NCBI GenBank assembly: GCA_040754655.1
Contig: JBFMCE010000048.1
Span: 1 to 30,597 of the forward strand
Source: Bdellovibrionota bacterium
Lineage (GTDB): Bacteria > Bdellovibrionota > UBA1018 > UBA923
Direction: 5' to 3'
Length of the DNA: 30,597 nt
This document shows, piece by piece, positions 6,971-10,466 of this stretch (positions are counted from its first letter, which is position 1; each line of letters begins with the position of its first letter). Both the position numbers and the translations under genes were made by a program. The notes under the pieces are model-generated. The model was given only the letters and a program-made list of their open reading frames with translations. It did no database searches and was not told the origin of the DNA.

Positions 6971-9388
6971 AGTATCGGAAGACCGCAAGTCTGCATGCGA
7001 TGGAAGCTCAAGGCCCGCGATCTTAAGCTGGGTGATGCCTTTAAAACCTGACTCAAGCTTGCCTTGCAGTTCAAGGCTGGCCTGACCGATTTGGACAAGC
7101 CGCTGAACCTTCTGTTCAATTGAACTCATTTGATTCTTGATTCGAGCCGAAGCCTCTCCCAAGACCGACAGTTCTTTTCCGAACTCAACGTATTCCTTGG
7201 TGCTCGCATCAATGAAGCGGCCGGCTTGATAAGCAGAGTTCATGGCGGCCTCGTCTTCGATCGCCACTTGAGCGCAAACGCCCAAGCTCTCTTTGAGCTC
7301 TGAACTCAAGCTGCGCACTCCTTGGTCAACTTCAGCGACGGTCTGCTCGATCATGCGATAACTTCGCTCAAACTGAAGCATGATCTTCGCCACGTTCTCG
7401 GTGACCGCGATGACGTCGGCCTGGGTGAGCTCACGCTTGGCGCCGAGAATGCTATTGTTGGCGTTAAAGACCGAAGACTTTGAAAGAAGCGCGCGGATCG
7501 AGCCCTCGGTAGAACGCACGTGTTCCAAGAGTTTTTCGGTTTGCTCGACGCGCTCGACGCAATTCGAAACTTGTTGCTTGATCTTAGCGATATCGGTGAG
7601 CACGGTACCGCCCTGGCGCCTGATCTCCTCGTAAGTCTGCCTCAAGGTCTTGTTTCGAGTCTCGAGCTTCCCCATGCGAGCGCGCAGTTCGGTTGAATAT
7701 TCAACGAGCCCCGAGACCTCTGATTGCAGTGCTTGCACCTCAGCGCCTACTTGTTCGGTGCGCGTGAAAACCGTCTTTTTCAACTGGCCCTCGCGACCCA
7801 TGCGTTCAGCCATGGTTTGGATTTGACCCGCGACTGTGGCAGCACTCTCTTGAAGCTCGAGCGCAAACCCCTTCAGCAGGCGGATGCACTCTACCACCGG
7901 CGCTCTAGTCCCAGGCGCCGGGTCCGTGGGCAAGAGGCCCGTTTGAATGCGCTGAATAGCAGTACGCACCGACTCAAGTTGTTTGGCCAATTCAGTCTCT
8001 GCCCTGCGGTTCTCATCGCGCAGATCCCGAATGTGGACCATCACGTATTCCACCTGGCCGTCCGCGCCATGAACGGGCGTACATAGAGCATGAACCGCGA
8101 CCCCATCATCCCCTACCCGCAGGAGCGCGAGTTGAGAGATTTCTTTATTCTCAGAAAACGCCTTGCCAATTGGATCGACCACTTTGTTCTGTACATCGGT
8201 GAATCGAACGAGGTTTCCGTAAGCTACCGGTCCGGTTTCTTCCAGAGCCCTTACCTTGCCCAGTATTGAAAGGGCTGAGTTCCAGAAAATGCCTTGTTTA
8301 TTGCGGTTGACGAGCAAAAAGGGCACGTTGAGCAGCCGTTTCACCAAGAGATCTTCTTTGCGAAGCGAATTCACCCGTCTCATCGTTTGATCAAGGGCGC
8401 GATACACTTCAACCAACTCGGCATCGGGCCTTTCAGGAACCTTGAACTCATGAGCGCTCACATTCCCGCCGACCGTGATCCAGTGGGTAAGCTGCTCAAC
8501 CACATGCGCGCTCAACTGGCTCAGGTGTTTGGAAAAACGCCCCGTCGAGAAGATGAACCATAGAGTCGAAAGCGATACGAAAAGAAGGAACATCACGATC
8601 GCTTTGAAAACGTCGGCATGGGCGTCATTGGCAAAATCCACGAAGGTTTTGCTCTGTTGATCATTGTAGCGTTTGAGCGCGGCGGAAAGTCTTCTGAGCA
8701 CCTCGAGACGGGTGGCTTTTTCGGTTTGGAACTGCTGGCAAGCTTCAATGTAACGGGACGCGCGTTGTTTGAGCACCTCGAGCTGGCCAAAGATCATGAT
8801 CTTGGTATGATGAGGCAGGGTGGAACGCGTCACAACCGCCGTGAGCTGCGAGACTTTAGAGATCACCCCGGCGGCGGCTCTCTCTCCCATCTGAAAAGAA
8901 AGATTATCGATATCACTGACGGCGATGCCTACGATGCGAGCGACCTGCATCCACTTGTTGGCCCATGAAAGACGGTAGAGGTTGAACGTAGTGGTTTTGA
9001 GATTTCGATAATGGACGAAAAGATCCTCGGCCGTCCTGCTCTTGTTTTGAGACAGCCCTTCCAAGAGTTTTTCCGCTTCATCGAGGGATTTGTCCGAGTT
9101 TTCTTTTTTCAACGCTTTCACATCGTCGAGCATCGCGACGATCTTCTCATTGAAAGCATCTTCGCCATCGTCACGAGCCACCGGAGAATTCGCGAGCTCC
9201 TCAGCCACCTTGACGCGCGCGGCGATCACCCTTCCCGTAGCCAGCGTCTTCTGGTCACCCGAAAGCACCCGCATCATATTCTTTTCGTACTCTCGAAACT
9301 TTTGAAGGATATAGGCCGACGAGAAGCCTCCGAAGACGAGCGCCACCACGACTGCTGAGACAAAGCGCCGCTGAAGGCTAGGACGCAT
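6956..9388 (-). CDS. Divergent chemoreceptor (MCP)-like membrane protein: TM-periplasmic-TM-HAMP-like-PAS-coiled coil
   Basis: Two TM segments (~aa 9-28 and ~263-281). PAS-like LNVPFLLVNRNKQGIFWN...TPVHGADGQVEYVMVHIRD. Long coiled coil containing KSSVFNANNSILGAK...VTENVAKI...MIEQTVAEV, which aligns loosely to the MCP tip QTNLLALNAAIEAAR...VADEVRKL...EIEQMIEEI. Confidence 0.6.
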   Translation of the reverse strand: MRPSLQRRFVSAVVVALVFGGFSSAYILQKFREYEKNMMRVLSGDQKTLATGRVIAARVKVAEELANSPVARDDGEDAFNEKIVAMLDDVKALKKENSDKSLDEAEKLLEGLSQNKSRTAEDLFVHYRNLKTTTFNLYRLSWANKWMQVARIVGIAVSDIDNLSFQMGERAAAGVISKVSQLTAVVTRSTLPHHTKIMIFGQLEVLKQRASRYIEACQQFQTEKATRLEVLRRLSAALKRYNDQQSKTFVDFANDAHADVFKAIVMFLLFVSLSTLWFIFSTGRFSKHLSQLSAHVVEQLTHWITVGGNVSAHEFKVPERPDAELVEVYRALDQTMRRVNSLRKEDLLVKRLLNVPFLLVNRNKQGIFWNSALSILGKVRALEETGPVAYGNLVRFTDVQNKVVDPIGKAFSENKEISQLALLRVGDDGVAVHALCTPVHGADGQVEYVMVHIRDLRDENRRAETELAKQLESVRTAIQRIQTGLLPTDPAPGTRAPVVECIRLLKGFALELQESAATVAGQIQTMAERMGREGQLKKTVFTRTEQVGAEVQALQSEVSGLVEYSTELRARMGKLETRNKTLRQTYEEIRRQGGTVLTDIAKIKQQVSNCVERVEQTEKLLEHVRSTEGSIRALLSKSSVFNANNSILGAKRELTQADVIAVTENVAKIMLQFERSYRMIEQTVAEVDQGVRSLSSELKESLGVCAQVAIEDEAAMNSAYQAGRFIDASTKEYVEFGKELSVLGEASARIKNQMSSIEQKVQRLVQIGQASLELQGKLESGFKGITQLKIAGLELPSHADLRSSDTSTAS

Positions 9389-10466
9389 GGCTCACCCCGC
9401 TCTTCAGGTCGCCGTAAACAAGATAGGCGGGGTTCAAAACCAGTCCAAGCTCGCTCTGCGCGCTTTCGTCTACATATACTCCAAGTAGCCTTCCCGATCC
9501 GCTCAAAGCAGAATCAATCGGCAAGATGAAGATTTCTTGAACCGCATGAGTCGAAGCAACGGCGTAACGGATCGTCTCAGTGCCTGCTCCCAACTCAATG
9601 AGGTGCCTCGGCCCTTCAGGTTCGGCGAATGGCATCCCGGGCAAAGTGCGGATGCGCTCAAGATCGCGGGAAAGCATCCAAATTTCTGAATCCTCAGTGA
9701 CAAGCGATTCCGAGAGAGCGCGCGGAAACTCCCTGATGCTCAAGACGGCCCACGCAGGAACATAGACCTTACGTTGGCCGACTTTCACCGGCAGACAAGG
9801 AACTTCGCCCGCACAAGCGGGAAGGGAGAACAACCAGGCAGACCATTTTCCGGGCTTGCCTTCAAACGACACCCTCACCCCGAGCTTGGCCAGGGCCAAT
9901 CCGCTGAGATCAGAGAGCGGGGGCAAGATCCCGTTGCCATCGCAAATCACCCGCAACTGAAATCCCTTTTCCGACTCTCGCACCTCGAGTTGCATGTATG
10001 CGATGGGTCGTTTCTTGCGGGCGGAGCGTTCTTTCGAAGACTCGATGCTGTACTCGACGAAAACATCGAGCATCTCAAGGAATATGGGCCCGAACCTCTC
10101 GAGCAACCGGCGATCAAGGCGTGCGGCGGAAGGCTTGCACTCGACATTGACGTTTCTTCCGAGTTTTTGCGCTAAAGCCTCGATGCGTTTCTTCGATTCC
10201 TCGAAGAGGGTCGCGCAACTCTCAAGTTTGTCGGTCACGAGCTGTTCGAGCAAGCACTTCGACAGGCTGCCAAAACGATCGATGCCCGTAGACAACTGAT
10301 CGAGCTCTAAGTGCAGGTCTTGCAGCTGAGCAACTCCCAAAGCCTTGATCAAGGCGCTTGAGGCCGAGCCTTCAAGCGTTCGCTCTAGCTTTCTCAGGCT
10401 TTCCGAGAGTTTCTTTCTTTCTGCTACAAGATCACCGCCAAGGGCGATCAGTTCATCTAATGTCAT
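9378..10466 (-). CDS. CheA-derived protein (P3 dimerisation + degenerate P4 HATPase + P5 CheW-like), probable pseudokinase
   Basis: LDELIALGGDLV resembles CheA P3 LDQLMNLVGELV. LAQKLGRNV...LDRRLLE...IESSKER...KKR resembles the start of CheA P4. G1 box CDGNG. C-terminal VKVGQRKVYVPAWAV...GLVLNP is CheW-like. No Hpt domain. Confidence 0.72.
   Translation of the reverse strand: MTLDELIALGGDLVAERKKLSESLRKLERTLEGSASSALIKALGVAQLQDLHLELDQLSTGIDRFGSLSKCLLEQLVTDKLESCATLFEESKKRIEALAQKLGRNVNVECKPSAARLDRRLLERFGPIFLEMLDVFVEYSIESSKERSARKKRPIAYMQLEVRESEKGFQLRVICDGNGILPPLSDLSGLALAKLGVRVSFEGKPGKWSAWLFSLPACAGEVPCLPVKVGQRKVYVPAWAVLSIREFPRALSESLVTEDSEIWMLSRDLERIRTLPGMPFAEPEGPRHLIELGAGTETIRYAVASTHAVQEIFILPIDSALSGSGRLLGVYVDESAQSELGLVLNPAYLVYGDLKSGVSHAS

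Follow-up and report, generated by a model that had tools for sequence, protein, structure and literature searches.

CheA is regarded as the defining enzyme of chemosensory pathways, and a CheA homologue that appears to have lost its ATP site while keeping its place in a flagellar operon raises the question of what such a protein is kept for. The case considered here is a gene of the minus strand (9378..10466, stop codon included) within 30,597 nucleotides (nt) of DNA from a Bdellovibrionota bacterium (assembly GCA_040754655.1, contig JBFMCE010000048.1, positions 1 to 30,597), a stretch that was analysed as a whole and is called the window below. A preliminary description of its product had seen a CheA homologue that starts at P3, with its N box and ATP lid erased, and had interpreted it either as a catalytically dead dimeric adaptor, comparable in concept to ParP-type array factors, or as a dominant-negative partner of a real CheA.

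Our analysis, which relied on profile searches, predicted structures and comparison with related genomes, confirms the observations made on the sequence and partly supports the interpretation. We consider it probable, with moderate confidence, that the protein is a kinase-dead CheA descendant devoid of P1 and P2, acting as a non-catalytic pseudo-kinase together with the membrane protein of 810 amino acids (aa) that is encoded by the next gene. What is new here is that a CheA pseudo-kinase without P1 stands alone and has a receptor-shaped partner of its own; degeneracy of the kinase domain itself has a precedent in CheA3 of R. (Cereibacter) sphaeroides. If this reading is true, signalling or scaffolding without kinase activity can be built on the receptor-CheA architecture, and the pair offers a natural minimal system in which to study the non-catalytic roles of P3, P4 and P5.

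Domain composition and the ATP site

Standard domain models hardly recognize the protein, which has 362 aa and an ATG start. Among the three Pfam models whose alignment the preliminary description had recommended as a check, H-kinase_dim gave a sub-threshold match to the protein scanned alone (E 0.0019; 19 bits, the cut-off being 23), with 22.6-23.1 bits in a genome-wide search, and HATPase_c and CheW gave no match; nor was there any Pfam match to an Hpt domain. NCBIfam scores were 15-23 bits, to be compared with cut-offs of about 800-950 bits for the CheA models. The relationship to CheA was established with a family profile built from 14 sequences, namely the protein itself and 13 relatives of 353-385 aa (40-48% identity), which matched Thermotoga maritima CheA-289 (1b3q/3ja6) with E 5.5e-10. 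The same CheA-289 was the best Foldseek match (1b3q_A, E 8.9e-20) of the AlphaFold2 (AF2) model, whose predicted local distance difference test (pLDDT) score was 82.9 and whose predicted template modelling (pTM) score was 0.74. In VIA-align, residues 1-352 of this model were superposed on residues 298-671 of 3ja6_C (315 aligned), residues 1-355 on residues 269-646 of E. coli CheA (320 aligned, Z 19.3), and residues 80-218 on residues 354-540 of T. maritima P4 (134-137 aligned, 26% identity, Z 19.0-19.4, root-mean-square deviation 1.7-1.8 Å). As the profile, Foldseek and VIA-align matches agree, we conclude that the protein corresponds to the P3-P4-P5 part of CheA.

The P3-like region is a helical hairpin (aa 1-80; 10227..10466, minus strand), supported by the sub-threshold H-kinase_dim match, by model helices at residues 3-31, 34-43 and 45-80, and by alignment to the P3 of 4xiv_B, 3ja6_C and 6s1k_A; as this hairpin and P5 are both retained, the dimeric adaptor first proposed is a reasonable inference. 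It is followed by a P4 remnant (aa 81-218; 9813..10226, minus strand) whose GHKL fold without ATP lid is supported by the VIA-align superposition, and which is the most conserved part of the protein according to the invariant columns and the lowest ratio of nonsynonymous to synonymous divergence (dN/dS). The CheW-like, beta-rich P5 (aa 219-362; 9381..9812, minus strand) had been proposed at the outset, and it aligns structurally with the P5 of 2ch4_A, 3ja6_C and 6s1k_A, even though the Pfam CheW model is silent. It is further supported by a second matched stretch (about 191-350) in many canonical CheAs recovered by an exhaustive profile search of 1.84 billion protein representatives.

That the protein begins directly at P3, without Hpt/P1 or P2, holds at the level of the reading frame. 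The open frame comprises 363 codons, one codon beyond the 362-aa open reading frame (ORF), and the stop codon of the upstream gene, fliA, lies 3 nt before the ATG; as the frame closes one codon before this ATG, neither P1 nor P2 can be encoded in it. The order and fold of P3, P4 and P5 are those of canonical CheAs (T. maritima CheA-289, 1b3q; E. coli CheA core units, 6s1k and 8c5v), from which the protein differs by the absence of P1 and P2, by the loss of the N-box His, Arg and Asn, and by the deletion of the F box, lid and G2 (about 48 residues). Set against the definition of the CheA core that we used, consisting of P1, P3, P4 and P5 (Berry, Andrianova and Zhulin 2023), it possesses P3, the P4 fold, G1 (DxGxG) and P5, and is missing P1, the N-box His and Asn, the F box, G2 and the lid.

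Two alignments served to locate the lesions, the first comprising the family, two canonical CheAs from within the taxonomic order and an intact paralogue that the genome also encodes, and the second the family and three canonical CheAs from the exhaustive search. In both, as well as in the profile match, the N box is reduced to the relic EMLDVFVEYSIE (aa 131-142; 10041..10076, minus strand), which in the first alignment is opposite the canonical N box HLVRNAVDHGLE (locus L030) and HLVRNAVFHGIE of the intact paralogue (L010); similarly, the profile alignment places T. maritima hllrnaidhgie opposite the family consensus emletlveycve. The changes are His to Glu131, Arg to Asp134, Asn to Val135 and a further His to Tyr139. 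The G1 motif survives as CDGNG, as first noted, the canonical DDGxG having become C175-D-G-N-G179 (9930..9944, minus strand). A gap of 47-48 columns then removes the F box, the lid and G2 from the stretch spanning aa 180-203 (9858..9929, minus strand); moreover, 139 model residues cover 187 residues of T. maritima P4, which fits a deletion of about 48 residues. The gap falls after G189 in one alignment and after E202 in the other, its exact position being alignment-dependent. The collapse of the F box, lid and G2 that had been read from the sequence is therefore real, while the more specific pairing of G2 with PLSDLSGLAL is insecure.

These lesions are not peculiar to the window. Among the 22 best representatives of the family, 19 span the region and 18 of those span the His column. 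No member among the 18 has the N-box His, and a single one of the 19 has the Asn, in a column that is otherwise variable (V/T/P/A/S/L). The G1 Asp is kept by 18 of the 19. All 19, including a fragment of 77 aa, lack the F box, lid and G2. The erasure of the N box and the loss of the residues for Mg-ATP binding thus extend to the relatives. For a catalytically dead protein, as had been proposed, both sequence and predicted structure provide good support throughout the family.

Conservation and the receptor-shaped partner

The exhaustive search yielded 21 representatives at E<=1e-30, all of at most 370 aa, then the 77-aa fragment at E 8.7e-30, and then, after a gap, canonical-length CheAs from E 3.1e-20 onwards, which the family profile usually matches in two stretches split at the deletion. 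All 22 best representatives have 370 aa or less and P1 occurs in none of them; the 150 best matches, examined for fused or longer forms, contained none belonging to the family, Hpt fusions included. Six short matches from outside the family are also P1-less, and all six, once scanned, displayed a HATPase_c of full size (about 140 residues) as well as a CheW domain that Pfam recognises, so that we regard them as CheA4-like; three further members of the family had no Pfam match at all.

Among 127 genomes of the class, clear short-frame matches were found in f1, the taxonomic family of the window's own genome (G118, G119, G120, G122, G123, G124 and G126), and in a second one, f4 (G033 and G034); in G121, a contig-end fragment lies right after fliA. 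The protein family is small and confined to a small uncultured lineage. Its public annotations call for caution, since they differ from one member, labelled 'chemotaxis protein histidine kinase CheA', to another, labelled 'hypothetical protein'. The nearest feature cluster of a protein atlas is a family of ~365 aa, mostly from Campylobacterota and auto-named 'putative CheW'. The CheW model detects 83% of its members, H-kinase_dim 45% and HATPase_c only 35%, and this family may be another short CheA-like one with a weak kinase domain.

The gene is under purifying selection, and most strongly so in the P4 remnant. Two congeneric orthologues, compared by the NG86 method, differ over the whole gene at a proportion of 0.18 of nonsynonymous sites (pN) and 0.67 of synonymous sites (pS), giving dN 0.206 and dS 1.65. 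The P4 remnant is the most constrained part (dN 0.108, dS 1.85) and P5 the least (dN 0.313, dS 1.17), these values being rough, as dS is near saturation. The 14 sequences of the family profile share 51 invariant columns, concentrated in aa 137-216, and some of the invariant residues, such as W208 and W211, are foreign to canonical CheAs; R198 is likewise invariant. All 18 full-length representatives have uninterrupted frames, the length of which stays stable at 313-370 aa. Since purifying selection is strongest on the dead P4 and the invariant columns cluster there, this domain is being retained for some function. Overall, identity to the window is 21-47% across loci, compared to 61-86% for fliA and flhA.

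The CheA-like gene does not travel alone. Its end is overlapped by 11 nt by the start of the gene for the 810-aa membrane protein with chemoreceptor-like architecture (6956..9388, minus strand); this partner gene, like the CheA3 precedent, had not figured in the preliminary description. The order flhA-flhF-flhG-fliA-CheA-like gene-partner was found by tblastn in nine loci, which stand for eight distinct relatives as two of the loci are one contig, and in 7/7 loci the partner could start at a codon that overlaps the end of the CheA-like gene by 4-11 nt. The partner family counts 12 homologues, six of which are on the same metagenome contigs as homologues of the CheA-like protein. Both genes are present in G119, G120 and G034, and both are absent from G125 (97% complete), where fliA is directly followed by the convergent gene that flanks the pair elsewhere (38% identity, E 1e-76). 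The identities of the two proteins to the window co-vary over seven loci (r 0.95, versus 0.28 for fliA), which is weak evidence because the loci are related. The two genes behave as one inherited unit and are apparently co-translated.

According to its AF2 model (pLDDT 78.2), the partner is a receptor-shaped membrane protein, while its sequence shows no detectable relation to methyl-accepting chemotaxis proteins (MCPs). The model and a hydropathy scan place a first transmembrane helix (TM1) at aa 9-29 (9302..9364) and a second (TM2) at aa 260-283 (8540..8611), with a helical domain of about 225 residues between them that is predicted to lie outside the membrane. A PAS-like domain follows (aa 357-455; 8024..8320), suggested by a beta-sheet in the model, by PAS/LOV matches in Foldseek and by sub-threshold PAS_4 matches in four of eight orthologues (best E 0.00046). 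The C-terminal part would form a long antiparallel helical hairpin, with arms at aa 496-649 and 656-792 and a turn at 650-655 (7013..7903), as indicated by the model and by Foldseek; its tip, located from the turn (aa 638-665; 7394..7477), is the best-conserved stretch of the C-terminal half in the alignments. All these features are on the minus strand. The predicted topology, with TM1, a periplasmic domain, TM2 and a long antiparallel cytoplasmic hairpin, is MCP-like, and the partner has in common with MCPs the periplasmic helical domain between two transmembrane helices, a cytoplasmic sensory module and a hairpin with a conserved tip. Its best Foldseek matches were full-length models of Bacillus subtilis MCPs, 9a69_B (E 1.5e-7 over 636 columns) and 9a65_B; MCP cytoplasmic domains (2ch7_A, E 1e-4; 3zx6_A, E 1.1e-4) and PAS domains were also matched. 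TM-scores against MCP structures ranged from 0.2 to 0.48, low as expected for long rods.

Function of the pair and competing explanations

In the reading that we favour, the partner would play the part of a chemoreceptor, with its periplasmic helical domain, its two transmembrane helices, its PAS domain and its hairpin, which is conserved at the tip and measures about 150 residues in each arm. The dead CheA would dock on this hairpin through P5 and P3, as in a chemosensory core unit. The P4 remnant would have given up catalysis to become a binding surface, through which the state of the receptor is communicated to another protein. This could be a flagellar regulator, an Hpt domain or a response regulator, the last of these being what Caulobacter DivL reads with its dead catalytic domain. 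As the pair is made together with genes for flagellar export and placement, its function probably concerns the flagellum or its pole.

Several observations weigh against this reading. On the partner's side, Pfam MCPsignal matched none of eight orthologues at E<=1, hhalign, run against 12 canonical MCP domains from the class, gave a probability of 0.5%, equal to that of reversed controls, and the partner profile reached the T. maritima MCP 2ch7 at E of about 1e-3, amid generic coiled coils. As no MCP sequence homology was detected, the structural matches could result from shape alone, which long helical hairpins share with MCPs. A partner that would be a recognisable MCP was rejected on these sequence grounds, and only the architectural likeness was kept. 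On the side of the CheA-like protein, P5 is the fastest-evolving domain, the near saturation of dS limits the precision of all dN/dS values, and the G1 Asp is retained in 18 of 19 members, so that some residual binding of an adenine-type ligand may persist. Moreover, contact between the dead CheA and the partner is proposed by analogy, and the recipient of the output could be any of the three candidates named above. Folding P5 (aa 218-362) with two copies of the hairpin tip (aa 585-720) gave a score of 0.00 in a run made without controls, and we count it neither way.

The remaining chemosensory genes of the genome bear on several of the alternatives. In the assembly to which the window belongs (G000; 3.78 Mb, 196 contigs, 90% complete), H-kinase_dim matched the CheA-like gene only, and neither this model nor an E. 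coli CheA model revealed a five-domain CheA, which, at 90% completeness, is not proof of absence. The search for a canonical cheA that the preliminary description had called for was thus negative within this limit, whereas the stand-alone Hpt proteins sought along with it do exist, as frames of 133 and 144 aa. The E. coli CheA model retrieved four other proteins. Two are Hpt-P4 kinases without P5, on contigs C101 and C30. The third, on contig C179 (2.8 kb; L010:1192-2469, minus strand), is a P1-less CheA-like protein of 426 aa that ends in a P5-like tail and has kept the N, G1, F and G2 motifs intact; Pfam detects HATPase_c in it and not CheW, and similar frames of 406-440 aa occur in G123, G124 and G126. 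The fourth is an Hpt-CheW protein of 457 aa on contig C106, which combines an Hpt domain with a CheW-like P5, lacks P3 and P4, and looks like a minimal phospho-acceptor half of the CheA3 type. It is encoded (L049:2018-5919, minus strand) along with a metallophosphoesterase (373 aa), a CheW (152 aa) and an HD-domain protein (313 aa), and this CheW and the Hpt-CheW protein are two CheW-domain matches of the assembly. The C179 protein is CheA4-like and may be the kinase half for the Hpt-CheW protein. The only MCP-like match of the assembly is a protein of 374 aa on C30, with a sub-threshold MCPsignal match (31.8 bits, profile positions 25-87); its gene (L050:2464-6530) is near those of a PilZ protein and of a GYF_2-domain protein. 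Among the nine other genomes of the taxonomic family, seven have CheA frames of canonical length (544-919 aa) and eight have MCPsignal matches, which are above the cut-off in 103 of the 127 genomes of the class. The operon of the CheA-like gene itself contains neither cheY nor a CheA4-like gene.

Comparison with known systems helps to delimit what is unusual. ParP of Vibrio has no enzymatic activity, contains a CheW-like domain and is linked to the flagellar pole; it has neither P3 nor P4 and carries its own parts for array integration and ParC binding, none of which was seen in our protein, although no search aimed at them was made. Its likeness to the CheA-like protein is one of concept only, the P3-P4-P5 architecture with a degenerate P4 being different by inspection. 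The P1-less active kinases of the CheA4 type resemble the protein in being short and in having P3-P4-P5 or P4-P5 without Hpt, but their HATPase_c is complete, at about 140 residues, and their CheW domain can be recognised. DivL of Caulobacter is described as a histidine 'pseudokinase' whose GHKL catalytic domain has been repurposed for binding (PMC4211667). The catalytic (CA) domain of DivL was among the structural matches of our model (4q20_B, Z 13.2), as were many ordinary CA domains; DivL is a relative of DHp-CA sensor kinases and not of CheA, and has neither P5 nor a receptor-like partner.

The closest precedent is the degenerate kinase domain of R. sphaeroides CheA3. CheA3 is reported by Berry, Andrianova and Zhulin to carry degenerate P3 and P4 domains between P1 and P5, the P4 lacking a helix and the Mg-ATP residues and keeping the basic fold (PMC10782961); De Beyer et al. 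attribute to it a domain that dephosphorylates CheY6~P, and describe its binding to TlpC, an atypical receptor without the usual turn motif of the signalling domain (PMC6829392). Set against this description of CheA3, and not against its sequence, our protein shows the same type of kinase-domain lesion together with an atypical receptor partner. CheA3, as described, keeps a phosphorylatable P1 and shares an operon with its kinase half, CheA4, whereas our family has neither a P1 nor an active half in the operon; the active P1-less paralogue and the Hpt-CheW protein lie on other contigs than the CheA-like gene. A broad survey of CheA architectures states that the kinase domain is present in every homologue and shows no substantial variation in size (PMC10782961); it was based on domain models that do not detect our family. 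The literature searched, outside of which lay subscription journals and bioRxiv supplements, yielded no account of kinase-dead CheAs that form a P1-less family, nor of their pairing with the 810-aa protein.

It is conceivable, though rather improbable, that the pair forms an array-like machine devoid of any phosphotransfer, in which a cryptic descendant of a chemoreceptor and a CheA pseudo-kinase, made with FlhF, FlhG and FliA, would work by conformational coupling only. A signal from outside or a redox signal, perceived by the periplasmic and PAS domains, would then act on flagellar number, placement, sigma-28 activity or motor behaviour, and the lid-less P4 would be a binding switch for a regulator, in the manner in which DivL reads DivK~P.

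Alternatively, the protein could be a kinase-less subunit of ordinary arrays, which it would join through P5 ring contacts or by forming a P3 heterodimer with a real CheA, in order to tune or dilute the kinase or to tether arrays near the pole like ParP. The retention of P3 and P5, the presence of canonical-length CheAs and of MCPsignal proteins in most other genomes of the taxonomic family, and the polar-placement genes flhF and flhG in the same operon speak for this proposal. We hold it to be unlikely, since the protein is kept in a genome whose 90%-complete assembly shows no canonical CheA and a single sub-threshold MCPsignal match, is co-inherited, as one unit, with a receptor-like gene that belongs to it, and is most strongly constrained in P4 rather than in the domains that make array contacts. 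For these same reasons, namely the lack of a canonical full-length CheA in the assembly, the co-inheritance with a receptor-shaped neighbour and the conservation of P4, a dominant-negative partner of a real CheA is the weaker of the two options raised at first.

A receptor-controlled phosphatase of CheY~P, or a phosphate sink, would be comparable to the middle region of CheA3 of R. sphaeroides, a protein reported to combine CheY6~P dephosphorylation and TlpC binding with a lesion similar to the one seen here (PMC6829392, PMC10782961). This explanation is very unlikely, as no phosphatase motif was identified in the protein, the conserved acidic residues of its N-box helix are inherited from canonical CheA, and the operon has no cheY. 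We give still less credence to a protein that would remain an enzyme or a nucleotide sensor, with non-canonical binding of an adenine ligand such as ATP or ADP and perhaps phosphorylation of a stand-alone Hpt protein: the DGNG motif, with the Asp that binds adenine and the G1 glycines, kept in 18 of 19 members and the Hpt and Hpt-CheW proteins of the genome are compatible with it, but the N-box His, Arg and Asn are all lost, the Asn column is unconstrained, and the F box, lid and G2 that hold the phosphates are deleted. Finally, a decaying remnant of an operon-embedded cheA, without present function, might explain why the gene evolves much faster than its flagellar neighbours, and is hardly credible in view of the intact frames of stable length, a pN far below pS, the 51 invariant columns and the conserved stop/start overlap.

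The flagellar operon around the pair

The CheA-like gene is located near the end of a long flagellar operon of the minus strand, which comprises flgE through fliL, fliM, fliN, fliO, fliP, fliR, flhB, flhA, flhF, flhG and fliA, then the CheA-like gene and the 810-aa ORF, beyond which lies a convergent coaE. Its nearest upstream neighbours, all on the minus strand, were assigned by domain scans as flhA (FHIPEP; 13864..15993) and, with Pfam, as flhF (GTPase of the signal recognition particle type; 12360..13874), flhG (MinD/ParA-type ATPase; 11453..12358) and fliA (sigma-28; 10470..11456), which is separated from the CheA-like gene by the gap of 3 nt. In gammaproteobacteria, che genes also adjoin fliA in the flagellar operon. 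In the window, fliA and the CheA-like gene are in one reading frame, with only the fliA stop and one codon between them (10467-10472). A read-through fusion of the two was considered and rejected, because their frames differ in locus L017; for the same reason, the shared frame is probably due to chance.

Elsewhere in the window, two conserved ORFs without Pfam matches are found on the plus strand (51-824 and 839-1981). The second of these, of 380 aa, recurs convergently right after the pair in loci L017, L018, L033, L034 and L035, and also right after fliA in G125, the genome without the pair. Between the fliL-side and flgE-side flagellar blocks lie an M11/gametolysin-type metallopeptidase gene (22921-24879, plus strand) and an ORF weakly matching an IS200-like Y1 transposase (23.9 bits; 25047-25859, minus strand). 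The gene at the fliO position (19111-20361, minus strand) encodes 416 aa, far above the usual length of FliO proteins, and its FliO domain is restricted to aa 250-313.

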